This document shows, piece by piece, positions 2,311-50,744 of a DNA stretch of 64,000 nt. The DNA is taken from the IMG/VR virus record IMGVR_UViG_3300030406_000618; one strand, given 5' to 3'. Source of the stretch: an uncultured virus (IMG/VR IMGVR_UViG_3300030406_000618). Taxonomy: Duplodnaviria > Heunggongvirae > Uroviricota > Caudoviricetes. Position numbers and translations under genes: made by a program. The notes under the pieces were generated by a model. The model saw nothing but the letters and a program-made list of their open reading frames with translations. It made no database searches and was not told where the DNA came from. The first letter of the stretch is position 1. The number at the start of each line of letters is the position of its first letter.

Positions 2311-5300
2311 TTATAAATTATTACTGAATTGATATAATGATTTGATGTCATCATTATCTATCGGCCTTCCTGTATTTAGTTTTCCTTTGTTACGTTTCTG
2401 TACCTTTAAACTATCAATAAGAGTAAAGTCTCCTTTCTTATTCACTGTGCTTTTAAATAATTTAGCTTCCCTGATAAGTTGTATCTCAGCTAATTCGTGG
2501 TACTTCTTTACTATTTTTTTGATAGCTTTTATTTTACCACCGTCTGTTTTGTTTAAGTCGTCAATAACTATAGGTTCAGATAGCTTATCATAAGACTTAG
2601 AATTTATTAATTTTAGTAAAGCTTGGTCTAAAGTTTTACCACCTATTTTTGTTTCTCTTAATATTTCTTGTAGTCTATTGTAACCAGTCTGACCTTTATC
2701 ATTGACAAACAATGTTAAATCTATGTTGCCTTGTAGCTTTTCATTCATCTTAGGCACATTTACACCAAGACTTAATATCTCAGACGCAACAGGGTCTTTG
2801 GATTGTTCAGAGTATGCGAAAGGATTAAACATACCATTAATAAGTCTATCAGTTTCATCACCCTGTATTTTTAAAGGTTGACCTCGAAAGTCATACTTTA
2901 GTTCTACTTCACCTGTACCAGTACGTTTCTTTGCTTCATCAAGGATGCTACGGACATCTCGGTAGAAAGGGTCGTTGACTAGCTTGGTGTAAATGTTCGG
3001 TATAAAAGAACCCACTTTAGAGTTCACATATCTTGCTAATTTGTTTGGATTATCTTCAGTCAGCACTTGCATAAAATCTGCAAGACCTTTTAAGTATGTT
3101 TTACTAAATAAGTTTCTTGATATGCTTGATGAACCTGCTTGTAGTGCATTACTTATTTTTGCCGTTGGACTAATGTAATCTGATACATCACCGCCTTGTT
3201 GGGCCAACATAAGTAAAATATCACCACCTACTCTCTTAGCTTCTTCTTCAGTTAGTTTTGTGTAGACTTCGTTATAATCTGCAACAACTCCAAAGAATGC
3301 ACCAAAGGGGTCTGCTCTTCCAAATTGTATATATTTATATGTTCCACTTTTCTCGTCAAAGTATCTAAATGCGTATGGTAATGTACCACCGCTTTTTCGT
3401 AATTCTGCTAGGTCTCTTGATGTTGTTGTTTTTTCACCGACAACAGTTCCTTGTACTCCAGTAATATAACCTTCTCTATATAGCATAGATGCGTAGACCA
3501 TAAGACTAGTACCAACTGCTAGTTGTCCTCTTGCTTGAGCCATAAGTTCAGGCCCATTTCTACCTAAGAAATTTTCTCTTACTTGTTTTCTAATTAAACC
3601 TAGTGGTGTTCTATCTACAATGTTTAACATCAAGTTTACAGGTGTTCTAACAAACGGAACAACCTGACGAAGTATTGGATATTCATTTACAATGTCTTGC
3701 ATTCTTTTAAATATACCAGTTAAATCTTGTGTATATGTACTTTCTTGTGCATAGCGCATTGCATTCTTATTGATACCTCTATCAAATTCATCAAAACCTC
3801 TACCAATATATTCTAAGACATGTGCATCAAATTCAGATATTGGTCTTCTCTTTAGTGTTGAACCAACAATTTTATTTTTGTCTTTTCCTAATCTGATAGC
3901 ATCCATAACTGCATCAGCTTTTAATTTACTTCTATAATTTATTTGTTTGAAAAATTCGTCAGCACTATTTAGAAATCTTGTAGGCACTCTAACAACACTA
4001 CCTAAAGCACCACCGACAGATTTAGGGCCGTCTATTTTTGTAAGACCACCTTTACCGCCAATAATTGTATCTTCTTTTCTAAAAGCCATTGCCATGTATT
4101 TTATGGCATCACTTAAATATTCTCTAAATCCTATATAAGTTCTTATTGCTCTAACACCTTCTGAACGTAATGCTCTTGCTTTTGCACCTACACCTATAGT
4201 TAGCTGACTACCAATAAGTTGCTCTAGTGGTTTTAATATTGTGTTGGCAATGTTTGATGAAATATTAATGATGTGTGTTTTAGGATTAGATAATAGTGCA
4301 TTAATCCATATCTCGTTTAGTACATTCCATGATTTATTTTTGATTGCAAAACTTAATACTTTACTTAAATCTGCATCTCCTGTTTTTGCTATCTTATTAA
4401 TAAAATCATCAAAGTTACCACCATATTCGTCAAATTCTTTTATAACAGTGTCTAATTCTTGTCTTATAGGATTTTCAGGAACTTTACCGCTTACTCTTAA
4501 TGACCTACCTAAACTAGATGATATTGACCTTTTATTTTCAATAGCAAATTTATAGTTAGGTATTAATACTTTTTTTAAAAATTCTTTACCTTTTGGTTCT
4601 CTTCTTGAAACTATTGACAGTCTTTTTATAGCAGAAGCCATTGTTTCTATGTAACTATTTAGGGCAACAATTTTTTGTGGTGCTTTTCTAATTACTTGTT
4701 CAAGTTCTTTTACATCTATCTCTAATCTACCTGCATTATTTTCGTATAATCTTTTTGCAGAATTTTCTACTTGTTCATCAGTAATAATTACTTTTCTACT
4801 TTTTACTAATTTATCAAATGCTTTTTCAAACGCATCTATTGTAAGTAATCCTTGTTTATCTAGGTTAGTAAATTGTCTTAGATTAAAACTAGAACTTAAA
4901 TCAATATTAAATAAACCTTCGTCAAATACTTCTCTAGCTGATTGATTTCTGTTACCTCTTGCAGTTGCTTGCAAGAATTGAAACTGTTGAAAAATTGAAT
5001 CTTCTAAATCTTTTTCTAAGTTTTTAGATACTTCATCAGCAAATTCTTTTTCTTGTTGTGATTGTTTTATTTCACTTACATCTAGCCCTTCTTCATTTTT
5101 ACCTGCATTTGGACTAGCAGTATCAGCTTCATCAGTTTGATTTTTTAAAAATTGTTCGTCTTCTAAAATCTGTTCTTTACTATACTTCTCACCATTTCTT
5201 TCTGCATTTCTATTTTTAATTAATCTAAAAGTTCTAAATGCAGTTTCTAACGCACCACCAATAAGTGAACCTTCTAGTGCATTTTTAAATCTTGCTTCAT

Positions 5301-6024
5301 AAAAAGTATCATCAGGGTCAGAAGATAAATAATCAAATAATGGATTTTGTAAGTGTGGTGCATGTTCATTAATAATATCTACAAGTCTGCCTGTCTCTTC
5401 ATCAAATGCAGTAAAGTCAGCAATAGCACCTATAGTTGTTACTTTAGCAATCTTACCTGCGTTTGATATTGGATTTACTAACTTAAGTGGTTTTGTACTA
5501 TTAAATAATTTACTTGTTAGGTTTGCGCCACCCTTCAAGGCTTTGCCACCAAAGAAATATCCTGATACGAATTGTGTTACACCTCTAGTTACTTCACCTG
5601 CTACTGTATCAGCATCATCTACTTCAGGTAATTGTATAGCATCATCTACACTAAATTTACCAAATATAGGATTAGACCTTCCTTCTGATACAAGTTCATC
5701 ATATCTTTTGTATTGCATGATGCCGTTGTCAGCATCTTCACCAAATACAAATCCACCTATATTTGTTTTTTCTCCTAAAGTGTCACCTAATTTTTCTACT
5801 AATCCTATCGAAGATTGAACTGCATCTCTTACACCGCCTAATGCTTGTAATCCCATATCACCAATAACACTTCTATCTGTAGTTTTTGTTTGCTCTACAT
5901 TCTCTACTGGTTCTTGTTCTACTTGAAATCTTGGTAATGCTAAATATTTTTGTATTGTAGCTTCATCTGTTCCGTCAGGAAAAGATACTTTTTTACCGTT
6001 TGGTGCTTCTCTTACTATTGCCAT
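2311..6024 (-). CDS. Internal virion (ejection) protein, gp16-like
   Basis: 1237 aa; last of three internal proteins before the tail fibre; PFVRTPVN-type motif. Confidence 0.75.
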   Translation of the reverse strand: MAIVREAPNGKKVSFPDGTDEATIQKYLALPRFQVEQEPVENVEQTKTTDRSVIGDMGLQALGGVRDAVQSSIGLVEKLGDTLGEKTNIGGFVFGEDADNGIMQYKRYDELVSEGRSNPIFGKFSVDDAIQLPEVDDADTVAGEVTRGVTQFVSGYFFGGKALKGGANLTSKLFNSTKPLKLVNPISNAGKIAKVTTIGAIADFTAFDEETGRLVDIINEHAPHLQNPLFDYLSSDPDDTFYEARFKNALEGSLIGGALETAFRTFRLIKNRNAERNGEKYSKEQILEDEQFLKNQTDEADTASPNAGKNEEGLDVSEIKQSQQEKEFADEVSKNLEKDLEDSIFQQFQFLQATARGNRNQSAREVFDEGLFNIDLSSSFNLRQFTNLDKQGLLTIDAFEKAFDKLVKSRKVIITDEQVENSAKRLYENNAGRLEIDVKELEQVIRKAPQKIVALNSYIETMASAIKRLSIVSRREPKGKEFLKKVLIPNYKFAIENKRSISSSLGRSLRVSGKVPENPIRQELDTVIKEFDEYGGNFDDFINKIAKTGDADLSKVLSFAIKNKSWNVLNEIWINALLSNPKTHIINISSNIANTILKPLEQLIGSQLTIGVGAKARALRSEGVRAIRTYIGFREYLSDAIKYMAMAFRKEDTIIGGKGGLTKIDGPKSVGGALGSVVRVPTRFLNSADEFFKQINYRSKLKADAVMDAIRLGKDKNKIVGSTLKRRPISEFDAHVLEYIGRGFDEFDRGINKNAMRYAQESTYTQDLTGIFKRMQDIVNEYPILRQVVPFVRTPVNLMLNIVDRTPLGLIRKQVRENFLGRNGPELMAQARGQLAVGTSLMVYASMLYREGYITGVQGTVVGEKTTTSRDLAELRKSGGTLPYAFRYFDEKSGTYKYIQFGRADPFGAFFGVVADYNEVYTKLTEEEAKRVGGDILLMLAQQGGDVSDYISPTAKISNALQAGSSSISRNLFSKTYLKGLADFMQVLTEDNPNKLARYVNSKVGSFIPNIYTKLVNDPFYRDVRSILDEAKKRTGTGEVELKYDFRGQPLKIQGDETDRLINGMFNPFAYSEQSKDPVASEILSLGVNVPKMNEKLQGNIDLTLFVNDKGQTGYNRLQEILRETKIGGKTLDQALLKLINSKSYDKLSEPIVIDDLNKTDGGKIKAIKKIVKKYHELAEIQLIREAKLFKSTVNKKGDFTLIDSLKVQKRNKGKLNTGRPIDNDDIKSLYQFSNNL
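5772..5791 (-). promoter_or_regulatory. Phage RNAP promoter, SP6-like (ATTAGGTGACACTTTAGGAG)
   Basis: One of five copies of the motif; lies inside the gp16-like CDS. Confidence 0.65.
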
Positions 6025-12130: not shown

Positions 12131-12160
12131 TAAAAAAGGGGGGAACTAAATCCCCCCATT
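12131..12160 (-). terminator. Intrinsic terminator after capsid gene (T-phi position)
   Basis: Minus strand GGGGGG-ATTTAGTT-CCCCCC followed by a T run. Confidence 0.85.
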
Positions 12161-12167
12161 GTGGTTA

Positions 12168-13121
12168 TTATTGTGTTTTGATAGACACTGCACTCTCAGG
12201 TCTTAATACGTTTGAGCCTACTGCCATTCTTGCAGTCATTAATGTACCAAGTCTTCTTGGGTCATAAGTTGTCTCAAGCACTAAGTCTTTAAGTTTTACA
12301 GTACCAATCGCTGATGAATGGAATAAAGTAGCCACGTGATATTGGCCGTCAACATTATATGTGTTGTTTGTTCCACTCACTGCTGATGAGTTATCAGCAA
12401 ATGCAGTTACCGCAGTGTTTGATTTCACTACAGGCACACCACCGATTGCTACCACTGTACCTTTACCAAAGTCACCATTGTTAGATGAGAAGTCACGTGA
12501 GACTAGCTTATCTACGTTTGCTAACTTGTAGTAAATGTCAGGGTTTACAACAATGTATCTACCTGCATCTGGAACGTCATTCTCGTCAAGTCTTTGAATA
12601 CCTTCAAAGATAGATGCGATAAGACTATCCATGTTTGTGTTTGCGTCTGCATCAGTAATTTCTAAACCGCCATTTAAGTCAGTTGTAATATTTGCAGATG
12701 CTTGTGAAGCCAAGATAGCTAACTGTAGTAAGTTTTGGTCTACAGTCTTTGCTAATGCACTTCCCATTTCTTTTGAGTAAATTGAACGCACATCATAGTG
12801 ATTTTTCAATTCATCCATTTCAGCAACAAATGCTGATGCTACGAGCATGTCATCAATGTTGATGATTTTCTCGTTGTGTTTCACTGCTGAACCAGTGATT
12901 TCATTTCCTACTGTATGATAACCTGCGCTTATCTTTCCAGTTACAGGGAATTGAGCAGACTTTCCGTTTGCAATAGTTCTAACGGTGGTCATACCTAACA
13001 TGAGGTTCTCACGTTGAAAACTTGCAAGAACTTCACCACTGAAAACTTTCAAGAATAATGCGTCAAAGGCCGTACCAGTATTGTTGACTAAACCTAGTCT
13101 ACTTGGGGTTGCGTTTGCCAT
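12168..13121 (-). CDS. Major capsid protein (gp10-like)
   Basis: ALFLKVFSGEVL...RTIANGKSAQFP...LRPESAV; strong AAGGAG RBS. Confidence 0.95.
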   Translation of the reverse strand: MANATPSRLGLVNNTGTAFDALFLKVFSGEVLASFQRENLMLGMTTVRTIANGKSAQFPVTGKISAGYHTVGNEITGSAVKHNEKIINIDDMLVASAFVAEMDELKNHYDVRSIYSKEMGSALAKTVDQNLLQLAILASQASANITTDLNGGLEITDADANTNMDSLIASIFEGIQRLDENDVPDAGRYIVVNPDIYYKLANVDKLVSRDFSSNNGDFGKGTVVAIGGVPVVKSNTAVTAFADNSSAVSGTNNTYNVDGQYHVATLFHSSAIGTVKLKDLVLETTYDPRRLGTLMTARMAVGSNVLRPESAVSIKTQ

Positions 13122-17158: not shown

Positions 17159-17480
17159 TACTATTGTTATTTTCTCCTAAAGTGTCACTTAATTTATCTA
17201 AGGCTTCTTTTAGTTCACCTGCAATACCACCGTAACCACATATATCTACGTAATCATCTTCATTAAACTTACCATGTTGCGTTCTTGCAACCTTTAACAA
17301 TACCATAAGTAATGCTACATCAGCAGTATTTAATATTATATTTGCTCTAAATTTATTAGTTAAATAACCTGACCACAATCTTGCTATGTTATCGTGATTG
17401 ACTATTTTATCTCCGTTTTGTTTTGCTCTGTCACCATTAACTAGTTCCAGTGCGTTTTGTAGTGTCTTTGTAGTGTCCAT
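17148..17480 (-). CDS. DUF6378-like protein
   Basis: DRAKQNG...IARLWS...MVLLKVAR...DDYVDICGY. Confidence 0.75.
   Translation of the reverse strand: MDTTKTLQNALELVNGDRAKQNGDKIVNHDNIARLWSGYLTNKFRANIILNTADVALLMVLLKVARTQHGKFNEDDYVDICGYGGIAGELKEALDKLSDTLGENNNSNGQ
17174..17193 (-). promoter_or_regulatory. Phage RNAP promoter for late genes (ATTAAGTGACACTTTAGGAG)
   Basis: Motif copy just upstream of the head-gene cluster. Confidence 0.8.
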
Positions 17481-22996: not shown

Positions 22997-23412
22997 TCTT
23001 TTATCTCCTTAAGCCATTCTTTAGGGAAAGGCTCTTTGCTAGTTCTTACACAATGGTATTTAAATCCATGTAATTCACACCACTTGCCATAAGTTGTTTT
23101 AGATTTCTTACCAATCTTTGTTCTTGCGTTAGAAAAAATAAATCTAATATCTAACTCAGGATATTGTTCCTTAATTATTTTATGTTTCTTTCTGTCAGCA
23201 GTTACAAACTGTCCTTTAGTTTCCACAATGAATGCATCATCAATAGGAAAGTCAGGCTTGTAATATCTTTTTTGAGCAGGTTGTTGAAAGTCAATACGTG
23301 TTCCTTCGTAAGTAAATTTAATTTTTTTCTTACAAAGAAAATCATATACAACTTTCTCCAACCCACTCTTAAGTTTAGGCTTAGTAGTTTTACTAGAAAT
23401 CACCTTTAGCAC
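22969..23412 (-). CDS. Endonuclease I (gp3-like resolvase)
   Basis: SGLE, YKPDF, VETKG, DRKKH and LDIRFIF motifs. Confidence 0.93.
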   Translation of the reverse strand: MLKVISSKTTKPKLKSGLEKVVYDFLCKKKIKFTYEGTRIDFQQPAQKRYYKPDFPIDDAFIVETKGQFVTADRKKHKIIKEQYPELDIRFIFSNARTKIGKKSKTTYGKWCELHGFKYHCVRTSKEPFPKEWLKEIKECREIKQNI

Positions 23413-23986
23413 TATCTATTAGTTCTTGGTCATCTAGTTCATCTTGTGAAAATCCGTCTGTCTCTTCAAACAAATCTGACAATGATGAATTTTTATTTGT
23501 ATCTGAAGTAACTAGTTTAATTACTTGCACTGCTTTTGGTTGTAGTTGTATGCCTACTCCTTGTGCATCAGTAGCCCACTCTCGCATAATGTATGCAATC
23601 TTAAGTGTTGAACCACTCCATATTCTAGTCTCTTCACTCAAAGGTTTTTTGTTACTATCCATAACAACAATCCTTCTGTGAAATACTTCTTGTGTGGTAT
23701 TATTTTTACCACTTGCTTTTACTTTAAATGTAAATGTTACATAACCGTCATTATTATTTTCATACGGTAAATGTTTTTTTACATTTTTATTTTTTTGTTT
23801 GGCAATACGTGTAGCTAGTTCGTTACATGCATTCTCGATATCAGCAATCATCTGTGTTGCGTCTTCTATCTTAACCATAAGCTTACAGTTATACACACCG
23901 TCACTGTCAAATTTAGTATCAGGCACTTGTAGATGCGGATAAACTGCTTGACCTATAGCACTAACCTTTAGGTTATTTGTACTCAT
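23393..23986 (-). CDS. ssDNA-binding protein (gp2.5-like)
   Basis: PDTKF, AVQVIKL, acidic tail ending in Phe. Confidence 0.88.
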   Translation of the reverse strand: MSTNNLKVSAIGQAVYPHLQVPDTKFDSDGVYNCKLMVKIEDATQMIADIENACNELATRIAKQKNKNVKKHLPYENNNDGYVTFTFKVKASGKNNTTQEVFHRRIVVMDSNKKPLSEETRIWSGSTLKIAYIMREWATDAQGVGIQLQPKAVQVIKLVTSDTNKNSSLSDLFEETDGFSQDELDDQELIDSAKGDF

Positions 23987-24010: not shown

Positions 24011-24030
24011 TACCTAAAGTGTCACCTAAT
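24011..24030 (-). promoter_or_regulatory. Phage RNAP promoter for replication genes (ATTAGGTGACACTTTAGGTA)
   Basis: Intergenic, directly after the RNAP stop and before SSB. Confidence 0.85.
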
Positions 24031-25695
24031 CTATATACAGAAAAATACACTATCTTTTACCTGCTCTAGATTTAGATTACCCTTAGGTGGTAATTTAGGG
24101 AACTTGTTTTGATTTTTAGTAGACAACATAGCATACATTTGGTCTGACCATTTCTGTAGTACATCATCTTGGTAAATATCAAAGAAGGCTTCCCTTATAG
24201 CCTTTGACATAATGTCTGTTTCAGGTGCGACTACACCAAAACTATCATGTATCATACTAAAACTATCAACACCTGCTTCGTGTGCTTTTACTACTGCTAG
24301 TTGTAGACATGATGCATCTAGACTATGTATAAAATTAGGCGCAACTGATTGTGATATTTTTCTACTGTCAATGTTATCTGTTTCTGATTGCACAGTTAGT
24401 TTTATTATACTGTCACCCATTTTTGTTTTCACTCTCTTGTGTTCCATTTTGTAATTCATCATCTGCACTGGCGCATTCAATGGTGTTGTCCAAGATACAG
24501 GTAAATTTTCTGACGCAACAAGACGAGATACTTCTTGTAAAAATGCCATAATATTTTTTGCACCAACAACTACATCACCTATGCTATCCCAAACAACAGG
24601 TGTTAAATATTGTGTTGCTCTAAATAAATCGTCACCAAAATTGTGTTGCTTTCCTCTGTCTTGTAATTCTTTTACTACATGCTCTTCTATATATTCTCTA
24701 CATGAATATCTTGTCAGGCCGTATGGCAAACACATTGTAGGTTTCTTACATATTTTTCTATCTATGCCATAGTCAATCCATTGCATAGCTATCTTATCTC
24801 TACGTTGATTTAACTTTTCTAATACCTTAGTTGCAATGATGCCGTATATGTCTTGTGGTTTATTACTTGGTATTAAATTAGTAGCCTTACCACCATGTTC
24901 ATCTCGCATCATAGCTGAATAATGTTGTAAGCCTGAGTTACTACAATCTGTCTGTACTGGTAATGAAGTTAAAAATTTATTACTAAATCTTGTACTAGCA
25001 AACTCTTCATACTCTTTACAAAATGCATAGAATGCAAACGGTTTGTCTGCGCTATTCCACCATGTATCTCTCAATGGGTCTTTTGCAGTAGATAATATTC
25101 TATCATGGTTTGCTTGCACCCATTTTATCCTTGTGTTGATATCTTCTTTGTCAACTTCACCAAAACAATTTGCACCATATATAAATAAATGATGTTCACT
25201 ATCGCCTATAGGTTTTCCATATTTAAAAGTAAGTAAAGTCCTTGACCAGTCAGCACCTTGTGGATTTAACAATGCAGGCTTAGGATATATTCTCCACCTA
25301 AAATCATACTGATGTGGAAAGAACATTGACTTACCACCATATAATTTAGCTATGTTTAGCACCTGATTACATTGTATAAATTTAGATTTTTGTTGGTGTC
25401 TAAGGTCATAAACTTTATTTGCTCTACGTTTATAATCTCTTAGACTTTCTTTGTTTGTTGCAATATCGTATGGCTTAGGTGGTAGTTCTATAGTCTCAGG
25501 ATTTACAGGTAGCTTACCTAATGCATAGTTATTATCTAAACAAGTCTGTATAAGTTTGTATACGTGGTCGTTTCTAACCCATTCTGTTTCTTGTATACAA
25601 TCTATAGCCTTATATACATAAGGCATGTCATTAACTATATTATTTAACTCTTCTAAGTATTGTCTATTTCTTTGTTTTTGTAGATTGTAATGCAT
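24031..25695 (-). CDS. T7-type RNA polymerase, C-terminal catalytic part
   Basis: Motif A DCSNSGLQH, motif B RKICKKPTMCLPYG, motif C IHDSF; own RBS GGAAGGGGT. Confidence 0.93.
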   Translation of the reverse strand: MHYNLQKQRNRQYLEELNNIVNDMPYVYKAIDCIQETEWVRNDHVYKLIQTCLDNNYALGKLPVNPETIELPPKPYDIATNKESLRDYKRRANKVYDLRHQQKSKFIQCNQVLNIAKLYGGKSMFFPHQYDFRWRIYPKPALLNPQGADWSRTLLTFKYGKPIGDSEHHLFIYGANCFGEVDKEDINTRIKWVQANHDRILSTAKDPLRDTWWNSADKPFAFYAFCKEYEEFASTRFSNKFLTSLPVQTDCSNSGLQHYSAMMRDEHGGKATNLIPSNKPQDIYGIIATKVLEKLNQRRDKIAMQWIDYGIDRKICKKPTMCLPYGLTRYSCREYIEEHVVKELQDRGKQHNFGDDLFRATQYLTPVVWDSIGDVVVGAKNIMAFLQEVSRLVASENLPVSWTTPLNAPVQMMNYKMEHKRVKTKMGDSIIKLTVQSETDNIDSRKISQSVAPNFIHSLDASCLQLAVVKAHEAGVDSFSMIHDSFGVVAPETDIMSKAIREAFFDIYQDDVLQKWSDQMYAMLSTKNQNKFPKLPPKGNLNLEQVKDSVFFCI

Positions 25696-26632
25696 TCTTT
25701 ACCCCTTCCACTGTATTTTCCTCGTTATATTTTTTGCCATAGTAACCACCAACAAAAGGATTTTCCCACTTGCGAGGTGGCATAATCATAGGCATAAAAT
25801 CAGGATGTAAAGCTTCGTTAGATATATTAAAATTTTTTATTTCTTCTATCGTTTTATCTGTAGCTTCAACATATCTTATAGATTTATTCTTATATATTTT
25901 CTTTAGCGGTATATTTATTAACCCAACTATTTTTAAAAAATAAATCATCTTTGTACCTAAATGCACTTTGTCTGTCTTGTTCCATTTAATAAAATCTACG
26001 TTGTTTTTATTCATAAAATAAACCCACACGTTTTTCTTATACATGTATTTGTTTTCTGTTTGAGGTATAGATTTACTAGAATTTAATTTATTAGAAACTC
26101 TAGCATACAATGATTTATCAGTTGCCATAAACTGTGTAATCCTTGCTTCCATTTCTAACGCATTACCAATTTTTATACTTAATCTATTCAGTGTTTGTCT
26201 GTTTGATATACCGTCTATACTATTTTTTATAATAATTAAACTAGCCTTATCCCATATAATCGGTATGTCATTTTTTAATTCAGCATTATTAAAATGCTTT
26301 TGTTCTAGACATTGACATATAAGTTTAATTGCAGTTTGGTGTCTGCCTGCCAAACCTTGTAAGGATTTAGTTACCCATTCGTGTATCATCTTAGATAAGA
26401 TTGATACATACTTCTGCTGAAATACTATTCCATGTAACGTAGTGCTTTCTTGACCCTTGGCCATAGCATTGTTGACTTGTTTGTTAAACTTCTCAATACC
26501 ACCACGCATCATCATTTGTTCTAACTCTAGTTCTTCTTCTATTTTTTTGGAATAATTTTCATCATCACGAAATTTACCGCCAACACCTACACGCATAAGT
26601 TCCTGTAGTTGCTCTTGGATAAGTCTATCCAT
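25664..26632 (-). CDS. T7-type RNA polymerase, N-terminal part
   Basis: IGNALEMEAR, KVHLG and PMIMPPRKW...GGYY motifs; stops after a 32-nt overlap with the next ORF. Confidence 0.88.
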   Translation of the reverse strand: MDRLIQEQLQELMRVGVGGKFRDDENYSKKIEEELELEQMMMRGGIEKFNKQVNNAMAKGQESTTLHGIVFQQKYVSILSKMIHEWVTKSLQGLAGRHQTAIKLICQCLEQKHFNNAELKNDIPIIWDKASLIIIKNSIDGISNRQTLNRLSIKIGNALEMEARITQFMATDKSLYARVSNKLNSSKSIPQTENKYMYKKNVWVYFMNKNNVDFIKWNKTDKVHLGTKMIYFLKIVGLINIPLKKIYKNKSIRYVEATDKTIEEIKNFNISNEALHPDFMPMIMPPRKWENPFVGGYYGKKYNEENTVEGVKNALQSTKTKK

Positions 26633-26642
26633 ATATGTCTCC

Positions 26643-27764
26643 TTAGTTTATATTATTAATGGTGTCAGCTATCTTAGATTTCATACTATCAGTAGGCTTA
26701 GCATAATAGGTCAAGGTAGTTTTAATATCCTTGTGGCCTAAATAATATTGTACTGATTTTATATCTAAGTTTGCTTCAACTAATCTAGTAGCAGTTGTGT
26801 GTCTCGTAGTATATGGCACATAGTCTGCTGATAAATTAGCTTGCTTACGGTAAAAATCCCACTTATGTCTGATTGTATTTTTGTTATATAAAAATAATTT
26901 TTGGTCTTGTCTTTGTGAAGCACTTAACTTTTTGCGTTCAAATATTTCAATCATGCAATGAGTTAGTTGAATTTCTGTCCATACTCCTGTCTTGGTACGA
27001 TAAAATCGTAGCCAATAATTATTGTTTTTCTGTGTCACGTTATTGAGGGTCAAAGCAAATATTTCACTATGTCTTTGACCCCCTTCAATAGCCCAATTAA
27101 TAAAGTCTGCAAAATCTTGGTCATTATTCTTTAAACAAGCTTGAACTAAATCAGCTTGTTGGTCAAGATATAACACAGGTTTTGGCTTACTCTCACTAAC
27201 AGGTAGGTTTCTGATAGTAGGAATATTATGACCGTCTATTAATCGTCTATCGCAGGCATACTCAAACATGACCCTGAGTAAACCTAACCTTTTATTGACA
27301 GAAGAGTTATGAGATGTACCGACATTGCTTCTGTCTTTGATATAACTAGCGCAGGCAATTTTAAAGTCTTCGACCTGCTCAAACCTTATCTGATTTATTT
27401 TAATGTTACCAAAAAATTTTAATAAATCTTTGTAGTATATTTCTTGAGCATCTTGGCTTGTAAGTTTACTAAACCTTGTCATGTTTAACTGTGAAAATAT
27501 TTCTGACAGTGTTTGTTTATTATACTTATCATCATTGCCTAAACTTACTTTTGTTTTTAAGTTTGCTTTTATGTTAACTGCTTCTTGTAATGCTTTGTAA
27601 AACTCCTGCTCATATTCTTGACTAGAATAGTTGTCAGGCAAGTCCAGTTTTACTGTAGCAAACTGCCTTGATATCTTACCGTTATGTATTTTTGATTGAT
27701 TAATTTGTAATGTCTTCTCGTCTCTCAATCGTATACCTTTTGGAAGTGCCTTACTTATCATCAT
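26643..27764 (-). CDS. int: Tyrosine recombinase/integrase
   Basis: GQRHSE, RTKT, YTTRHT and LGHKDIKTTLTYY catalytic pattern. Confidence 0.9.
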   Translation of the reverse strand: MMISKALPKGIRLRDEKTLQINQSKIHNGKISRQFATVKLDLPDNYSSQEYEQEFYKALQEAVNIKANLKTKVSLGNDDKYNKQTLSEIFSQLNMTRFSKLTSQDAQEIYYKDLLKFFGNIKINQIRFEQVEDFKIACASYIKDRSNVGTSHNSSVNKRLGLLRVMFEYACDRRLIDGHNIPTIRNLPVSESKPKPVLYLDQQADLVQACLKNNDQDFADFINWAIEGGQRHSEIFALTLNNVTQKNNNYWLRFYRTKTGVWTEIQLTHCMIEIFERKKLSASQRQDQKLFLYNKNTIRHKWDFYRKQANLSADYVPYTTRHTTATRLVEANLDIKSVQYYLGHKDIKTTLTYYAKPTDSMKSKIADTINNIN

Positions 27765-29775: not shown

Positions 29776-29795
29776 TTCTTAAAGTGTCACTTATT
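29776..29795 (-). promoter_or_regulatory. Phage RNAP promoter near genome start (phiOL-like position)
   Basis: AATAAGTGACACTTTAAGAA. Confidence 0.7.
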
Positions 29796-30563: not shown

Positions 30564-30583
30564 CTCCTATAGTGGCACTTATT
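30564..30583 (-). promoter_or_regulatory. Phage RNAP promoter near genome end (phiOR-like position)
   Basis: AATAAGTGCCACTATAGGAG just after terL. Confidence 0.7.
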
Positions 30584-30624: not shown

Positions 30625-32292
30625 TTAATAACTTATCCATGATTTAGTGTTTCCGACACCCCAATACTTTTCTAACTCCTCGTTTAACATCTCTTCTCTA
30701 CGATTTTTAAAAGCCGTATCTTGGTCTTTACTTAATTGTTGTAACCAATAGTGACAACATAACTGTAAGGCATCTATTCTATCGTCATTAGCTAGTGTGT
30801 TTGCTCCTTTTTGTAGTCTAGAGCATTGATAAAATAGCTGATATCTAAGGGCCTGCTCAGCAGAATATATACTATTAGTGCTTTCGTAGTCTTCTTTTAT
30901 TACATTTCTATCAACAATAATTCTATGCTGAGAGAATAACGGCTCTAGTGTGTCTAGTATTCTACGGTGCTTATTAGCCGTTTGACGTACATTTTCTGTA
31001 GTACAAGGATATTCTTTAGATAAATATGGTTTGAGTAAGGCTTCAAACATACCTTGACCAAAGTTTTCTTCTATCAGTATTTTCTTAACGGAATGCTTCT
31101 TAGCTATCTTTGTCAGCTTGTCTAATACATATTCTGTATATCCTGCATTAAATCCACCGATATCTACTAAAAATATATTACCGTTTAGAAACTTTGTAAC
31201 ACAATATGCGGTCTCGTCTCTGCCTTTACCTGAAGGGTCTATAGACATTACACAACCTTGATACGGCAACCATTCGCCTTGTATCTGCATAGGTCTAAAA
31301 TAGGCATCTCCCATTAACCCTACATTCGGCAAATCATTATGTTGTAACTCAGGGGAAGAAGCCCATATTACTTTCTCAGGTGCATTATCAGGGTTCAGGT
31401 TCATAACGACCAAATCGGATAACTTAAGAGGATATTTATGTAAATCAGATAGAGTAGTGTCTAACTGAAATTGCATGTTAAAACCTAGTCTTCCGTAACT
31501 AGCTTCTCTCTCAAGTAAATCTTTATCGTCAAATCTAGAAGGTTCTGTAGATTTACCTACTTCTTCTGTAGACCATGTATTTTGTATGATAGGTGCTAGG
31601 TTAGAGCCATAACTCTTTAGTTGTTCTTCACTAGGATATCTAGCAGTCCAATACCTAACTTTATAACCACGTTCTTGTAACTTATTGTAAATACTTTGCT
31701 CACACTGAGGTGTGCCTAAAAACACGATTTTAGACGTTTCTAAGGGCTTTATAATAGCTTCGAACTCTTTGATAGCTTCTGATAGCTTATCTCGCATAAA
31801 CTGCGTCTGTGTATTACCTGACGTTTCAATATCATCAGCAACAATCAAATCTGCTCTACTACCAGTTAACTGTGATGTAATACCTAGAGATTTTACACTT
31901 GGTTGGTGAGATGCTAAAGCAGGTGCAACATCAAAAGAAATCTTAGATTGTCGTTGATTTTCAGTAGGTTTTAGATGTAGTAACAACGGCATCTCAGACA
32001 ATAGTCTTAGACAAAATGTACTAAAATCGTCTGCTCTATTTTTACTAGCTGATACAACTAAGATATTTAACTTAGGGTCTAATAATAATCTCCACAATAC
32101 GTATGCAGAAGTTATCCAAGATTTACCTACACCTCTAAATGCAGATATAATCTGTCTGCTTTCTTCACTGGCTATATAATCAGCTATGTCAAACTGTATA
32201 GTTGTTGGCTCAGGTAGATTTAGATGTTTCCATACTAAGTATAAAAAATTTCTAAAATCTCTTAGAGCATCAGGTATTTGATGCGGTTGCAT
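30625..32292 (-). CDS. terL: Terminase large subunit (gp19-like)
   Basis: AFRGVGKSWITS, IVADD, IDPSGKGRDET and DDRIDAL motifs. Confidence 0.95.
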   Translation of the reverse strand: MQPHQIPDALRDFRNFLYLVWKHLNLPEPTTIQFDIADYIASEESRQIISAFRGVGKSWITSAYVLWRLLLDPKLNILVVSASKNRADDFSTFCLRLLSEMPLLLHLKPTENQRQSKISFDVAPALASHQPSVKSLGITSQLTGSRADLIVADDIETSGNTQTQFMRDKLSEAIKEFEAIIKPLETSKIVFLGTPQCEQSIYNKLQERGYKVRYWTARYPSEEQLKSYGSNLAPIIQNTWSTEEVGKSTEPSRFDDKDLLEREASYGRLGFNMQFQLDTTLSDLHKYPLKLSDLVVMNLNPDNAPEKVIWASSPELQHNDLPNVGLMGDAYFRPMQIQGEWLPYQGCVMSIDPSGKGRDETAYCVTKFLNGNIFLVDIGGFNAGYTEYVLDKLTKIAKKHSVKKILIEENFGQGMFEALLKPYLSKEYPCTTENVRQTANKHRRILDTLEPLFSQHRIIVDRNVIKEDYESTNSIYSAEQALRYQLFYQCSRLQKGANTLANDDRIDALQLCCHYWLQQLSKDQDTAFKNRREEMLNEELEKYWGVGNTKSWISY

Positions 32293-35992: not shown

Positions 35993-38815
35993 TTATATTG
36001 TTGCTCTTAATTCACCTGTCGTTGTTATCGACCAAGTAAAACCTGTTGATGCGTACACAACATCATCAAATGTTGCATATGTTGATGAACTGATATTATC
36101 TTGTCCACCATTTGTTGTAGTAACTTGTAAAACACCAGTTCCTACATTGTAATTAAATCCATAAATTTCAGGACTTGCAGTTGTACTACTACCAGTTGAA
36201 CTAATTGTTAAAGTATTAGCATTGTCATCATAAGCTAAGTTTATATTTGTACCTGCTTGTAATAAGCCATTAACTCTGTCATCAACTCTTTCATCAGTAA
36301 AATAAAGATTAGAACCTTCACTTAAAGCACTTGTGCTAGAAGGAACATCAGTAGCATTAGCTAATTCTATCCAGTTACCACCATGTGCATAGTAACCTTT
36401 ACCTGTTGCATGAACGTGTGCAAACATACCATGATATGTAGTAGCACTAGGTAAATCACTAAGTTGTGCATACATATTTGCAAACTTAATTTTACCAGTG
36501 GTAGTAATATCGTTACTACCCATATCAAGATTAGAACCTGTAATAGCACTGGTTGCTCTTGCGTTAGTAAAGTATAAATTTGATGAACCTTCAGATAATG
36601 CATCAGTATTATGATTTGATATGTCTGAAGTTTGTCCTGTAACATTACCTGTTACATTACCAGTAAGATTGCCTTCTACTGTGCCTGCAACAAAAGTCTC
36701 ACTACCAATAGTCCACTTGTCTGCGCTTTCATCCCACTGAAAAGTTTTGTTAGAGGAACTTCCTCGACTTACTTCAATACCAACATTTTCTGTAGGTGTG
36801 CCAGTAGCATTACTGTTTAATAAAATTTTGTTATCTGCAAGTTCGATTGTTTCGGTATTTACAGTAGTTGTAGTTCCGCTTACAGTTAAATTACCACCAA
36901 TAACTGCATTACCAGTTGTAGTTATAGAAGGTAAATTACCGCTTGAAAGTCTTGCATCAACTCTTGCATCTGTATAATAAAGATTTGTAGAGCCTTCAGA
37001 TAAGTCATCTGTAGTAGATGAATTTAAACCTTGTGTAGATATTACACCAGTAGATGAATTATAATTTAAATCACCTGATACTGATATAGAACCTCTTGCT
37101 CTTGCTTGAGTAAAGTATTGGTTAGTTGAACCTTCAGATAAAGAATCTGTATCAGGATTAGCAGTAGCACTTGCAGCTATGCCTGATAATTTTGTTTTCT
37201 CAGCATCAGTGAAAGCATTAGTATCATTATTGTTTTCATAAGCTGTTTTAATTTCAGCATCAGATTGATCTGCAGTTGCACCTGTTTCAATACCACTTAA
37301 TTTTGTATTTAAAGCTGTAGTATAAGAAGCAGTAGTTGCATCTAATACTGAACTGTGAGCCTGGACATCAGATCCAATAGCAACACCCATGTTAGTTCTA
37401 GCAGTTCCTGCATTTGGTAAATCAGATAAATTATTTGACTTTTGTAAAAAAGTAGTTCCTGAACTATAAGCATCTACCCATGCACTTCCTGTGTAAACTT
37501 TCATAGCTCCAGAGCTAGAATTAAAATATAAAGCACCAGCAACTAAAGCATTTCCGTCATTATCTACACTAGGATCTGAACTTTTTGGTCCTAAATATCT
37601 GTCGTCAAAACTATCAAAAGAAGCTAAAGCACTATCCCTTGCAGATTCAGCAGCTGTTTGTGCTGAAGCAGCAGCACTTTGACTCGAGGCTGCAGCAGTA
37701 GCTGAGTTATTTGCGTTTGTAGCTTGTGTAGTAGCAGTTGTTGCTGAATTACTTGCGTTAGTTTCAGATGTTGCAGCAGCTGTCGCTGAGTTTGCTGAAG
37801 CAGTAGCACTATTAGCAGCATTGGTTTCTGAAGTAGCAGCTGCACTTGCACTATTGGTTGCACTAGTCGCTTGAGTAGATGCTGTAGTAGCACTAGTTGC
37901 TGCGTTTGTTTCTGAAGTAGCAGCATTATTCGCTGATGTAACACTTTCTGCTGCTTTGGTTGTTGCTGTGGTTGCAGATGTTGCTGCATTTGTTTCGGAT
38001 GTTGCTGCGTTAGTCGCTGATGTAGCAGCTTCAGTTGCTTTAGTTGTAGCAGTTGTAGCTGATGCCGCTGCGTTACTTTCTGAAGTAGAGGCTGCAGATG
38101 CCGAACTAGCAGCATTTGTAGCTGACGTAGTAGCTGTTGCAGCGTCTACTACTAATTCATATTTTGCACTATTTGCATTTGTAGTAAGAGGCTGAGAACC
38201 AGATGATGTGTGCGATTCTAATACAATAAATACATTATTTGTAGATGTGTCTTTAACTAAATCTCTTTTGTTATAACTTGTACTTGCAGCCCAGTTACCT
38301 CTAAATACACCTAATTCTTGAGTAGCATCAAATCCATCACCAGAACTATTAATAGCAAGAACTTTGTTTGCTATCAGTTCTCCAGGTAAATCTGCATTAA
38401 AGGTTGTAGTACTAGTTACAGGATATTGTAATGTTCTTAAAAATTTTTCTTCTAACTGTTGCATCATAGCAACAATCTTGTCTAATTCTGTATTTAGAGT
38501 CTGTATTGGAAAATTACCAGATACTGGAAAGTCAGAAGTTCTAGCAATAGCTACATCTCTAATAATAGTAATAACATCATTTAGGGTAGCACCTGATCCA
38601 CCTAGTGTTATAGATCCCCCACCTGTAACACCTGCACCAATTACACTGTATTGTGATGCAGATGAAGGTGAGTTGCTGTAAGTAAGGAGTGTCGTACCAT
38701 TGAAAACTTTTAAATCTGCTACGTCAAAAAATTCAAAACTAACAGCAAATGTAGTTTGTCCAGACGTAGCTGTATATTGATTTTTGGGTGTTGTATCACT
38801 TATTTGTAATGCCAT
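35993..38815 (-). CDS. Tail fibre spanning the A/B join (phage B N-terminus, shared or phage A C-terminus)
   Basis: gp17-like N-terminus, ATSETNAA repeats, LSEGSxNxYxT repeats; contains repeat copy 2. Confidence 0.85.
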   Translation of the reverse strand: MALQISDTTPKNQYTATSGQTTFAVSFEFFDVADLKVFNGTTLLTYSNSPSSASQYSVIGAGVTGGGSITLGGSGATLNDVITIIRDVAIARTSDFPVSGNFPIQTLNTELDKIVAMMQQLEEKFLRTLQYPVTSTTTFNADLPGELIANKVLAINSSGDGFDATQELGVFRGNWAASTSYNKRDLVKDTSTNNVFIVLESHTSSGSQPLTTNANSAKYELVVDAATATTSATNAASSASAASTSESNAAASATTATTKATEAATSATNAATSETNAATSATTATTKAAESVTSANNAATSETNAATSATTASTQATSATNSASAAATSETNAANSATASANSATAAATSETNASNSATTATTQATNANNSATAAASSQSAAASAQTAAESARDSALASFDSFDDRYLGPKSSDPSVDNDGNALVAGALYFNSSSGAMKVYTGSAWVDAYSSGTTFLQKSNNLSDLPNAGTARTNMGVAIGSDVQAHSSVLDATTASYTTALNTKLSGIETGATADQSDAEIKTAYENNNDTNAFTDAEKTKLSGIAASATANPDTDSLSEGSTNQYFTQARARGSISVSGDLNYNSSTGVISTQGLNSSTTDDLSEGSTNLYYTDARVDARLSSGNLPSITTTGNAVIGGNLTVSGTTTTVNTETIELADNKILLNSNATGTPTENVGIEVSRGSSSNKTFQWDESADKWTIGSETFVAGTVEGNLTGNVTGNVTGQTSDISNHNTDALSEGSSNLYFTNARATSAITGSNLDMGSNDITTTGKIKFANMYAQLSDLPSATTYHGMFAHVHATGKGYYAHGGNWIELANATDVPSSTSALSEGSNLYFTDERVDDRVNGLLQAGTNINLAYDDNANTLTISSTGSSTTASPEIYGFNYNVGTGVLQVTTTNGGQDNISSSTYATFDDVVYASTGFTWSITTTGELRATI
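36647..37240. repeat. Direct repeat copy 2 of shared tail-fibre segment
   Basis: Matches window positions 1-~590. Confidence 0.95.
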
Positions 38816-48245: not shown

Positions 48246-48270
48246 AAAGGGGGGAATAAATCCCCCCAAT
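48246..48270 (-). terminator. Hairpin / weak terminator after head genes
   Basis: G6/C6 stem with a short T tract. Confidence 0.55.
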
Positions 48271-48274
48271 ATCA

Positions 48275-48523
48275 TTATGATAATAATGCAGTTGTTACTG
48301 TAGAGGATGTTGCAGCTGATACGATTAAGATATCTACTACACCATTTGATCCACCACTGTTTACAATGATTACATCACCAGCGTTCAGATCGCCTGTCGC
48401 TGATAAAAAGTAATCTGCATCATCAATAGTTCCTATAGCATCTCCGTCAGAGTAGTACCATAAGGAATTGCTATCTCCCATTTGAGAGATCTTCTTAATT
48501 GGATTTGAAGTTGCGTATGCCAT
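48275..48523 (-). CDS. Small virion (capsid decoration-like) protein
   Basis: 82 aa directly after the capsid gene; AGGAG RBS. Confidence 0.6.
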   Translation of the reverse strand: MAYATSNPIKKISQMGDSNSLWYYSDGDAIGTIDDADYFLSATGDLNAGDVIIVNSGGSNGVVDILIVSAATSSTVTTALLS

Positions 48524-50469: not shown

Positions 50470-50744
50470 TATGCCTCCTTATCAGATTCAATTCTTTTCT
50501 TGATGATGAAATATAAATATCTCATGCCTTCAAGATGTCGTAGATGTTCATTGCTAATATCTTTACCTGCAACTGCATCTACTGTTATGGATCTTAAATA
50601 ATCCAAAATCTTTGCACCAACAACGGTGCTAAAAACTGCATTCATTTCTGAATTAAGTTCTCTTTCTTTTTCTTCTGTTCGATAAAATCCATCAATAGAT
50701 AGATGGCTTCCTTTAGGTTTGTTCTGGAGCTGCTCCCAACTCAT
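50469..50744 (-). CDS. Bbp19-like protein
   Basis: VFST..GAKILDYLRSIT...LRHLEGMR; between portal and scaffold. Confidence 0.7.
   Translation of the reverse strand: MSWEQLQNKPKGSHLSIDGFYRTEEKERELNSEMNAVFSTVVGAKILDYLRSITVDAVAGKDISNEHLRHLEGMRYLYFIIKKRIESDKEA

Follow-up and report, generated by a model that had tools for sequence, protein, structure and literature searches.

A conserved two-gene T7-type RNA polymerase in an uncultured phage related to pelagiphages

Introduction

T7-type RNA polymerases are the standard textbook example of a single-subunit enzyme and are heavily used in biotechnology. The T7 RNA polymerase (RNAP) is a single chain of 883 aa (PDB 1aro, 1cez, 1qln). This chain can be divided in the laboratory: T7 RNAP cut in two after residue 301 or 302 stays active (793 and 530 AU; PMC4299498, supplement sd3), at a level below that reported for the seams at 179 (2488 AU) and 601 (1115 AU) (PMC4299498). 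In that study, the two 301/302 fragments need no added zippers for activity (Segall-Shapiro et al. 2014, PMC4299498). A natural example is N4 RNAPII (gp15 and gp16), described as a T7-like heterodimer in which each subunit aligns to a different stretch of T7 RNAP, with no overlap between the two (PMC4496689), as the initial annotation of the DNA studied here had also held.

The closest described systems are found in marine phages. Split polymerase genes have been noted for the HTVC019Pvirus group III pelagiphages, with HTVC011P given as the sole exception in the clade; the available text devotes three sentences to the split and gives no mechanism (Chen et al. 2019, mSystems, PMC6811365). In the openly accessible literature that was searched, we found no other mention of it. 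By text search, the available text of Zhao et al. 2018 (bioRxiv 10.1101/410191) does not mention a polymerase split, and that of Buchholz et al. 2021 (PMC8163748) does not mention RNA polymerase.

Here, we describe a locus in an uncultured phage (IMG/VR record IMGVR_UViG_3300030406_000618); the whole stretch of 64,000 nt that was analysed is referred to as the window. The window carries a genuine two-gene T7-type polymerase and is an added member of the group already described, which answers the question raised by the initial annotation of whether such a split was known in relatives.

Gene organization of the locus

The initial annotation had proposed two minus-strand ORFs of 322 and 554 aa with a 32-nt overlap, the second in the +1 frame, preceded by its own ribosome-binding site and, two codons upstream in its frame, by a TAA. 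The ORF coordinates were reproduced exactly and both signals were found. The features of the locus are as follows.

26643..27764, minus strand: tyrosine integrase gene (PHROG integrase, 2.8e-39), ending 10 nt upstream of the N gene
25664..26632, minus strand: ORF of the N-subunit gene, 322 aa plus stop, Pfam RPOL_N
25701..25709, minus strand: Shine-Dalgarno-like GGAAGGGGT, 5 nt (AAAGA) before the ATG of the C gene
25701-25699, minus strand: TAA in the C frame, two codons before the C-gene ATG
25695-25693, minus strand: ATG start codon of the C gene, in the junction sequence
25664..25695, minus strand: 32-nt overlap of the N and C genes, with the N stop downstream of the C start and the C frame at +1
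24031..25695, minus strand: ORF of the C (catalytic) subunit gene, 554 aa plus stop, Pfam RNA_pol, starting MHYNLQK
23393..23986, minus strand: gene for a Gp2.5-like ssDNA-binding protein (SSB), directly downstream of the polymerase genes

The first base of the TAA is also the last base of the Shine-Dalgarno-like GGAAGGGGT. Gene order in the window is int-RNAP-SSB-endonuclease-amidase, and its int-RNAP-SSB-endonuclease part is common to Pelagibacter podophages. The split-RNAP pelagiphages HTVC041P, HTVC025P, Gjalp EXVC020P, MedDCM-OCT-S30-C28 and uv-Fonsiphage-EPL have this synteny in common with the window, together with the break position, the MHYN start of the C part and an N part that ends in GGYYGK..N.... 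In the window the integrase gene abuts the N gene, and a search for tRNA genes across the window returned none, hence none beside the integrase, whereas in HTVC011P and HTVC025P a tRNA-Leu separates the integrase from the polymerase (Zhao et al., bioRxiv 10.1101/410191).

Protein domains and position of the break

Both parts are homologous to T7 RNAP. The N part matches Pfam RPOL_N (PF14700; 4.4e-13, 49.8 bits against a cut-off of 30.1) over profile positions 4-296 of 334. It aligns to T7 residues 118-288, and its C-terminal end lies 23 residues past GGYYG, a tail that has no T7 counterpart. The C part matches Pfam RNA_pol (PF00940, 1.2e-97) and T7 RNAP itself (3.6e-98, covering T7 residues 313-880), and comprises thumb, palm and fingers; motifs A, B and C lie in it, as does a DxxGR-type motif of which the D and R are kept. 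As in T7 RNAP, a promoter-binding N-terminal domain is present, and the equivalents of T7 D421, R425, D537, R627, K631, Y639, H811 and D812 are all kept, the first two being D131 and R135 of DxxGR in the window. The position of T7 G424 is occupied by W; it is variable within the clade, where 30 relatives have G (17), S (7), W (5) or T (1). Unlike T7 RNAP, the window encodes two chains, with a break that aligns to T7 residue ~291/292 and an added tail on the N part, which measures 10-27 residues across the clade. The alignment thus sustains what had been read from the locus at the outset: motifs A, B and C are intact, the junction carries extra residues relative to T7, and the cut falls near the boundary between the N-terminal and polymerase domains, more precisely late in the N-terminal domain and just before the thumb. 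With two ORFs, each with its own stop and start, the enzyme departs from the one-chain organization of the 'single-subunit' family; on sequence grounds, it belongs to the T7-like family by homology, yet is not single-subunit.

The two known split enzymes differ from the window in different ways. N4 RNAPII is broken between the thumb/DX2GR block and the palm, that is, between gp15 and gp16 (PMC4496689), whereas in the window the DxxGR block belongs to the C part, at residues 131-135, and the chain is broken ~130 residues before it. N4 RNAPII is also described as minimal, at 673 aa, having a truncated N-terminal domain and gp1/gp2 cofactors, of which gp2 is needed (PMC4496689), whereas the pair in the window totals 876 aa with a full RPOL_N match. 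The engineered 301/302 split of T7 RNAP likewise has two fragments with their own stop, RBS and start, and its cut may fall in the same surface region. It is man-made and its seam residue differs: in the alignment, C-part residues 10 and 11 are the counterparts of T7 S301 and K302, which places the natural break ~10 residues upstream of the engineered seam.

Conservation of the split among relatives

The initial annotation had suggested looking for the same split in related genomes, and it was found in all 113 junctions (84 distinct) that could be resolved from 125 sources, every one at the homologous position. The sources were IMG/VR, GenBank phages, fosmids and single-cell genomes. A first survey of 86 sources had given 78 split loci, one fused locus (HTVC011P) and seven that were not assessable. 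As a first single-protein scan of IMG/VR gave only three close loci, the scan was redone with an alignment and two patterns, an MHYN start, which favours split forms, and LQHYSAM, which does not; many MHYNLVK or MHFNLVK loci could enter only via the latter. Among 27 genome_contigs loci, 13 were split (56-64% identity), eight were fused (29-38% identity) and six had no visible junction; 12 of the 13 split loci are titled Pelagibacteraceae or Pelagibacter. The search for related proteins gave 1856 at E<=1e-30, and the best 120 protein clusters (59-100% identity) are all 553-577 aa long and contain PF00940 only. A query with the N part found no protein longer than the split form at E 1e-10 among 2033 candidates, a weak search that missed the fused HTVC011P too. 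The split also occurs in the cultured phages HTVC041P, HTVC025P and Gjalp EXVC020P and in Chosvirus KM23C739, at 42% identity. From these sequence comparisons, the split is judged ancient, predating divergence down to 42% identity.

In a tree of 82 C-part rows (quick search, LG+G4), the window falls inside a 79-row clade (SH-aLRT 100) and groups with L006-L008 in a four-row group (SH-aLRT 99). Its proteins are 50-60% identical to those of cultured clade members and 85-89% identical to those of three IMG/VR contigs, and the break has the form typical of the clade, with an N part ending in GGYY plus a tail and a C part starting (M/V)H(Y/F)N. By its sequence, the phage is assigned to the T7-like podoviruses of the Pelagibacter-phage group, among relatives of Stopavirus, Fussvirus and Chosvirus, the members of HTVC019Pvirus group III. 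Pelagibacteraceae contigs from single cells or MAGs, up to 325 kb long, carry relatives at 56-64% identity. The window phage itself has no host sequence joined to it; it is predicted to be a marine phage of the SAR11-infecting kind. The clade is abundant in the sea, and the two-piece enzyme has been retained in it down to 42% identity.

A possible short duplication at the break was considered and set aside: the N tail HSYKLT and C head HYNLF of Chosvirus resemble HSKQLTLV of the fused CRP-125, a likeness that rests on six residues.

A predicted two-subunit enzyme

We consider that the two genes most probably yield separate subunits that form a natural two-part phage RNA polymerase, with a probability of about 90%. 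Comparative support for the natural two-subunit enzyme put forward in the initial annotation is strong and comes from the conserved split, the varied junctions, purifying selection, the cultured phages and contigs without an indel. The upstream gene would give a 322-aa subunit with the promoter-binding N-terminal domain and a strand ending in GGYY, and the downstream gene a 554-aa subunit with thumb, palm, fingers and all catalytic residues. The C gene would be initiated at its own ATG behind the Shine-Dalgarno-like motif, and its translation is probably coupled to termination of the N gene, given that the genes overlap or lie end to end. Both chains would then assemble without a covalent link into the T7 RNAP architecture, and the assembled enzyme may read five SP6-like phage promoters.

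The complex of N and C parts was predicted with an ipSAE of 0.79 (runs 0.78, 0.80 and 0.79), against 0.00 for the best control. The ipSAE mark of the complex-prediction tool is passed by 116 of 157 solved complexes and by two of 215 mismatched pairs. Runs agreed in at least 73% of contacts, partner pLDDT was 62, and the predicted interface has 180-199 contacts, in which C-part residues 1-6 touch N-part residues 291-297. Since T7 RNAP has been solved as one chain, the pass of the model may stem from likeness to that structure; the modelled complex is accordingly read as likeness to T7 RNAP, not as binding.

The break could also have a regulatory role, in which a separate, dissociable promoter-binding subunit sets a concentration threshold that keeps a temperate phage silent, or in which the N part cycles like an initiation factor. 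The promoter-binding domain does sit in the N part, engineered T7 fragments are reported as concentration-dependent parts (PMC4299498), the split has persisted for long, and these phages carry an integrase. However, an integrase gene lies directly upstream of the polymerase gene in CRP-125 and MedDCM-OCT-S28-C10 too, both of which are fused relatives; integrase presence therefore does not track with the split, and the control point that the initial annotation had tied to the integrase could not be upheld. The overlap or abutment of the genes suggests that their products are made together and in roughly equal amounts, not under independent control, the large modelled interface includes the strand beside the break, as would be expected for a stable complex, and the data are accounted for just as well if a tolerated break was fixed neutrally. 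A regulatory role is thus unlikely. Slightly less probable again is that the N domain is a dissociable, sigma-like initiation subunit, with activity following the product of both concentrations and the N part leaving or being exchanged at promoter escape. If true, the synthetic 'resource allocator' would have its counterpart in nature, and these temperate SAR11 phages would possess a threshold switch for their whole transcription programme.

Random bisection by engineers had led to a site no more than ~10 residues from the natural break. Because of this proximity to the engineered seam, the locus may offer a ready-made natural split pair, tested over a long time and with its own promoter, as a candidate orthogonal two-part expression switch.

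Variation at the junction

Ten stop/start arrangements were seen among the relatives, with overlaps of 44, 32, 29, 20, 11 and 1 nt and gaps of 1, 3, 5 and 9 nt, and these cover all three relative frames, in-frame stops included. The 32-nt arrangement of the window is present in 30 of the 113 junctions. Such an overlap, which leaves both frames open for 32 nt with the C frame at +1 relative to the N frame, could serve as a recoding device, with a programmed +1 ribosomal frameshift producing a full-length single chain. The 29- and 32-nt +1 overlaps are the commonest arrangements (61/113 junctions), and a minor fused product is conceivable there. Elsewhere in the clade the geometry speaks against recoding: 17 junctions have a 1-nt overlap in the +2 frame, four have an in-frame stop with a 3- or 9-nt gap, 12 have a 1-nt gap and two a 5-nt gap, the gapped ones having no overlap at all. 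In HTVC025P, a stretch of 497 nt separates the halves and contains two small ORFs, neither with a Pfam match above cut-off (best DUF5098, 19.3 bits against a cut-off of 27). The upstream C-frame stop, the Shine-Dalgarno-like motif and the start codon are kept everywhere; among the 84 distinct junctions the start is ATG in 77 and GTG in seven, and a Shine-Dalgarno-like 4-mer lies within 20 nt upstream in 84/84. The C-frame peptide MHYN(L/F)(I/V/Q)K is conserved, whereas the overlapping N-frame tail is variable in sequence and in length (10-27 residues after GGYYx), and a conserved slippery site is absent from the aligned overlaps. Frameshifting as the explanation of the two ORFs is very improbable, and separate initiation of two subunits is preferred.

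In the deposited genome of the cultured phage HTVC011P, the polymerase is a single 880-aa ORF that lacks one A present in its 98-99% identical environmental relatives, so that a single missing base sets the published exception apart from its natural near-twins. A secondary re-fusion, suggested by its nesting among split rows in the tree, was considered and rejected, as its 85-99% identical relatives are split in 22 of 22 assessable cases (25 HTVC011P-like IMG/VR loci: 22 split, none fused, three not assessable). Because these relatives are all split, the HTVC011P record is treated as a one-base exception; if the record is correct, the fused form would also be viable and the split not obligatory for function.

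The two ORFs of the window could also be a sequencing or assembly artefact of a truly single ORF: the overlap has short A runs, and the loss of one base there would join the frames, which is how the HTVC011P record reads. Contigs of other runs cover the junction without insertion or deletion, a contig-level observation in which rare variants would be missed: one (X3 record 13) spans 25466-26158 at depth 21, and another (X5 record 22), from another study, spans 25671-25867. In addition, the 113 related junctions are split at the same residue, many with gaps or in-frame stops beyond repair by a single indel, and for uv-Fonsiphage-EPL no mapped reads with an unsplit polymerase gene are reported by Chen et al. 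2019 (PMC6811365). An artefact is therefore hardly credible.

Promoters and selection on both halves

A search for the promoter-like 16-mer TAGGTGACACTTTAGG with up to three mismatches gave six matches in the window against 0.66 expected, and six or more were obtained in none of 100 shuffles. Five sites on the minus strand were counted, in agreement with the five cognate promoters of the initial annotation.

24013..24028, minus strand: promoter-like 16-mer TAGGTGACACTTTAGG, immediately after the polymerase genes and before the SSB gene
5774-5789, 17176-17191, 29778-29793 and 30566-30581, minus strand: other copies of TAGGTGACACTTTAGG from the 16-mer search

Over 16 pairs, the N part had a dN/dS of 0.036-0.114 and the C part one of 0.056-0.168 (0.04-0.17 for both halves); for the window against L006 and L007, the values were 0.044-0.073 and 0.060-0.061, respectively. 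Neither a dN/dS near 1, as relaxed selection would give, nor additional frame breaks in relatives were seen. A broken, decaying polymerase gene in a phage or prophage that is defective or dependent on the host RNA polymerase, as might be supposed from the interrupted gene, from the integrase of a possible prophage remnant and from the composite assembly of the window, has next to nothing to recommend it against this purifying selection, the retention of all catalytic residues and five cognate promoter copies, the same split in lytically propagated isolates and an age of the split greater than the divergence down to 42% identity. The argument against decay first drawn from intact motifs and promoters is thereby joined by selection on both halves.

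Sequence words of the window were nearly absent from both RNA runs listed. The TAGGTGACACTTTAGG promoter-like sites were also picked up as families D7 and D8.

Two polymerase genes in the window phage

The T7-type RNA polymerase is encoded by separate genes for a 322-aa N-terminal protein (N part) and a 554-aa catalytic protein (C part). The initial annotation's description of ORF coordinates, overlap, frame, junction, family matches, catalytic residues and promoters was confirmed in every detail.

Polymerase genes, their junction and promoter-like copies in the window
25664..26632, minus: N part gene, 322 aa (ORF; Pfam RPOL_N, 4.4e-13)
24031..25695, minus: C part gene, 554 aa (ORF; Pfam RNA_pol, 1.2e-97)
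25709-25701, coding strand of the junction: GGAAGGGGT, then AAAGA, then the C-gene ATG at 25695-25693
5774, 17176, 24013, 29778 and 30566, minus: five copies of the promoter-like 16-mer TAGGTGACACTTTAGG (motif count)

The genes overlap by 32 nt, with the C gene in the +1 frame relative to the N gene, and a TAA at 25701-25699 closes the C-gene frame two codons upstream of its ATG. In a search of solved structures, the N part aligned to T7 RNAP 118-288 and the C part to 313-880 (3.6e-98); the N part ends 23 residues past GGYYG. Equivalents of T7 D421, R425, D537, R627, K631, Y639, H811 and D812 are all kept in the C part. The 16-mer, which we take to resemble the SP6 promoter, has 6 matches in the window at up to three mismatches against 0.66 expected, a count that none of 100 shuffles attained.

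In the DxxGR motif of the window C part, G is replaced by W (residue 134, codon ~25294-25296). This position holds G in 17, S in 7, W in 5 and T in 1 of 30 relatives, with W common to the window and its four nearest alignment relatives and F in HTVC011P (KC465900); judging from these sequences, it is unusually free in the split clade.

The integrase gene ends 10 nt before the N gene starts (26633-26642), and no tRNA gene was found in the whole window, so the attachment site of the window phage must be elsewhere. In HTVC011P and HTVC025P, tRNA-Leu and attP are placed between integrase and polymerase in the available text of Zhao et al. (2018; bioRxiv 10.1101/410191).

Distribution and age of the split

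The split polymerase of this clade, the pelagiphages of HTVC019Pvirus group III, is already in print (Chen et al., 2019, mSystems, PMC6811365), which answers the earlier question of whether it had been described in relatives. Our literature search found no other paper mentioning the split and no biochemical study of the enzyme; the available text of Zhao et al. (2018; bioRxiv 10.1101/410191) and Buchholz et al. (2021; PMC8163748) does not mention it. To this known group the window phage adds a new and rather distant member. New here are the extent and depth of the split clade, its diverse junctions as evidence against recoding as a general mechanism, the dN/dS estimates, the location of the break close to the engineered 301/302 seam of T7 RNAP, and the finding that the published exception, HTVC011P, is one base off its natural near-twins.

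Among named relatives, podoviruses of Candidatus Pelagibacter come closest (58-60% identity in the C part, 50-53% in the N part).

Named relatives with a split polymerase
HTVC041P: gp8 + gp9, overlap 32 nt (deposited annotation)
Gjalp EXVC020P: two polymerase genes, overlap 20 nt (deposited annotation)
Fosmid MedDCM-OCT-S30-C28: two polymerase genes, overlap 29 nt (deposited annotation)
HTVC025P: gp09 + gp12, 497 nt apart, with 48-aa and 85-aa ORFs between them at 3931-4331 (deposited annotation)
Deep-sea Chosvirus KM23C739: 42% identical, gap 1 nt, homologous break position (deposited annotation)

Neither intervening ORF of HTVC025P had a family match above the cut-off, and the insertion looks recent because the halves are only 9 nt apart in a sister contig (L030). 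The outer relatives CRP-125 (Roseobacter phage), HTVC142P (Pelagibacter phage) and MedDCM-OCT-S28-C10 have single ORFs at 37-39% identity.

IMG/VR was scanned with the C-part alignment, and the best 80 of 384 relatives were used. Among 86 sources (85 loci and the window), 78 are split, one is fused (HTVC011P) and seven are not judgeable, the N part running past the contig edge. The same split, which the initial annotation had suggested looking for in related genomes, was resolved at 113 junctions among 125 sources; among the remaining 12 are HTVC011P, HTVC025P and truncated loci. Since L066 and L005 are one and the same fosmid and further loci may repeat one population, distinct junction sequences were also tallied (84). 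The resolved junctions fall into ten arrangements in which all three relative frames are represented.

Junction arrangements (number of loci)
Overlap 29 nt: 31
Overlap 32 nt: 30
Overlap 1 nt: 17
Gap 1 nt: 12
Overlap 11 nt: 11
Overlap 44 nt: 4
Gap 3 nt, in-frame stop before it: 3
Overlap 20 nt: 2
Gap 5 nt: 2
Gap 9 nt, in frame: 1

In a large protein collection, the best 120 clusters for the C part (59-100% identity) are all 553-577 aa and carry PF00940 only. CRP-125 and HTVC142P, both fused, rooted a quick tree of 82 C-part rows. In it, Chosvirus is the first branch, the remaining rows form one clade (SH-aLRT 100), and HTVC011P lies within a 71-row subclade (98), with a long-branch warning that includes HTVC011P's own branch. 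Taken together, this tree and the relatives of HTVC011P trace the split back to the base of this clade.

Split-clade phages also occur on 85-325-kb contigs of Pelagibacteraceae single-cell genomes (L116-L128, genome_contigs), a placement consistent with prophages integrated in SAR11 cells.

The fused exception

The polymerase gene of HTVC011P is not split according to the available text of Chen et al. (2019; PMC6811365), and its record holds a single 880-aa ORF. An IMG/VR search with this protein gave 25 loci at 85-99% identity: 22 carry the split, three are not judgeable and no fused form appears. Where five contigs (L091-L094, L098; 99% protein identity) have AGCAAGTAACAGAAG, the HTVC011P record has AGCAAGTACAGAAG, lacking one A at locus position ~3455 (GTAC vs GTAAC). 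Four contigs compared over the 2,643-nt gene by blastn are 98.4-99.2% identical to HTVC011P, and in three of them the missing A is the sole gap. A relic TAA-TCA-ATG-CAC-TAC-AAT persists in the +1 frame of the record. By this comparison the fusion is a one-base difference in one record, and the missing A is either a 2013 sequence error or a laboratory-stock mutation.

Translation of the two halves

Fusion of the two frames by frameshifting was rejected as a general mechanism, as many relatives lack the overlap, use a different frame, carry an in-frame stop or have 497 nt of intervening genes; this junction variety rules out recoding in general. Throughout the clade the C-frame start peptide is kept as (M/V)H(Y/F)N(L/F/M)(I/V/Q/L/F)K, and the N-frame tail over the overlap is variable both in sequence and in length (10-27 residues past GGYYx). 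In HTVC025P, whose halves do not overlap, MHYNLIKQTNRRYLEEL is retained and the N tail has drifted (AKSLYKNL). Across the 84 distinct junctions the C gene starts with ATG in 77 and GTG in 7, and all 84 have an SD-like 4-mer in the 20 nt before the start.

Decay of the polymerase gene was rejected on the low dN/dS of both parts (Nei-Gojobori, 16 pairs; N part 0.036-0.114, C part 0.056-0.168). The split is present in three cultured, propagating phages.

Assembly error was likewise rejected: 20 public runs from 9 studies contain part of the window, and in contigs from four of them, used in place of the raw reads proposed initially and blind to rare variants, no insertion or deletion is listed across the 2.6-kb polymerase region, with zero differences from the window in a 693-nt contig of run X3 (depth 21, 25466-26158) and a contig of run X5, from a different study (25671-25867).

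Position of the break and the proposed two-part enzyme

Both parts were aligned with T7 RNAP and fused relatives. C-part L5, N10, R11 and M24 correspond to T7 L296, S301, K302 and M313, M1 by extension to about R292, and N-part GGYYG to 284-288, which puts the cut late in the N-terminal domain, ahead of the thumb; the N-part tail beyond GGYYG is without counterpart in T7 RNAP. Random bisection of T7 RNAP gave active in-frame splits after 301 and 302 (mean 793 and 530 AU), alongside seams at 179 (2488 AU), 601 (1115) and 67 (778), all described as surface-exposed (PMC4299498 and its supplement sd3). By alignment, the natural break falls about 10 residues before the engineered 301/302 seam. In the known natural heterodimer, N4 RNAPII, the cut is elsewhere, with palm on one side and the thumb/DX2GR block on the other (gp15 | gp16; PMC4496689). 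In the window enzyme DxxGR lies in the C part.

The heterodimer was modelled, as initially proposed, from 30-row alignments of the window and IMG/VR loci only. The N/C complex scored ipSAE 0.79 (runs 0.78, 0.80 and 0.79) against 0.00 for the best of three controls; of 157 solved complexes, 116 pass the tool's mark, as do 2 of 215 mismatched pairs. Contact agreement between runs was at least 73%, and partner pLDDT was 62. C-part residues 1-6 contact N-part residues 291-297, and as the confident interface names no N-part residue past 297, the N tail is unplaced. Because the solved T7 RNAP is a single chain, the pass can stem from likeness to that structure; the model shows the fit of both halves to the T7 fold, and binding is not implied.

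The comparisons show two genes with their own translation signals, both under selection and cut near a T7 site that tolerates bisection. Translation of the C gene would begin at its own start and is probably coupled to that of the N gene, because the two genes either overlap or abut at each of the 113 resolved junctions (HTVC025P, the exception, is not among them). The 37-kDa and 64-kDa products may then assemble into a T7-shaped enzyme that would read the five promoter copies. Neutral fixation of a tolerated break accounts for the data. The analysis gave no evidence for a regulatory role, and the earlier suggestion of a control point tied to the integrase is not supported, as the fused CRP-125 and S28-C10 likewise have an integrase immediately upstream.

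Architecture of the window

The window looks, from its gene content, like a composite of two phages.

Features of the putative composite
about 30590 down to 1, minus: T7-like phage with the split polymerase
30625-32292: TerL, 76-81% identical to HTVC011P-group TerL, directly upstream of the split-polymerase phage
from about 37.2 kb on: genes of a different podovirus
50713-52290: portal, 55% identical to that of Pelagibacter phage EXVC031P Hodr
1-300 vs 36647-36946 and 435-513 vs 37081-37159: 97%-identical tail-fibre stretches at the junction of the two phages

The TerL placement is as in a circular ~36.6-kb genome, and the join, which lies inside tail-fibre genes, could be an assembly mis-join or a fibre module that both phages genuinely share. 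A long stretch of degenerate 30-nt (10-residue) repeats occupies 746-1836 of the tail-fibre gene (1-2307, minus), and this repeat run has a 98-nt unit in 16 copies at 61-73% identity.

In T7, a terminator follows the capsid gene. A G6...C6 hairpin, AAGGGGGGAACTAAATCCCCCCAT, lies at 12136-12171, just past the first phage's major capsid gene and overlapping its stop, with a 78% similar copy at 48246-48281, about 250 nt past that of the second phage; it looks like a terminator following the capsid gene.
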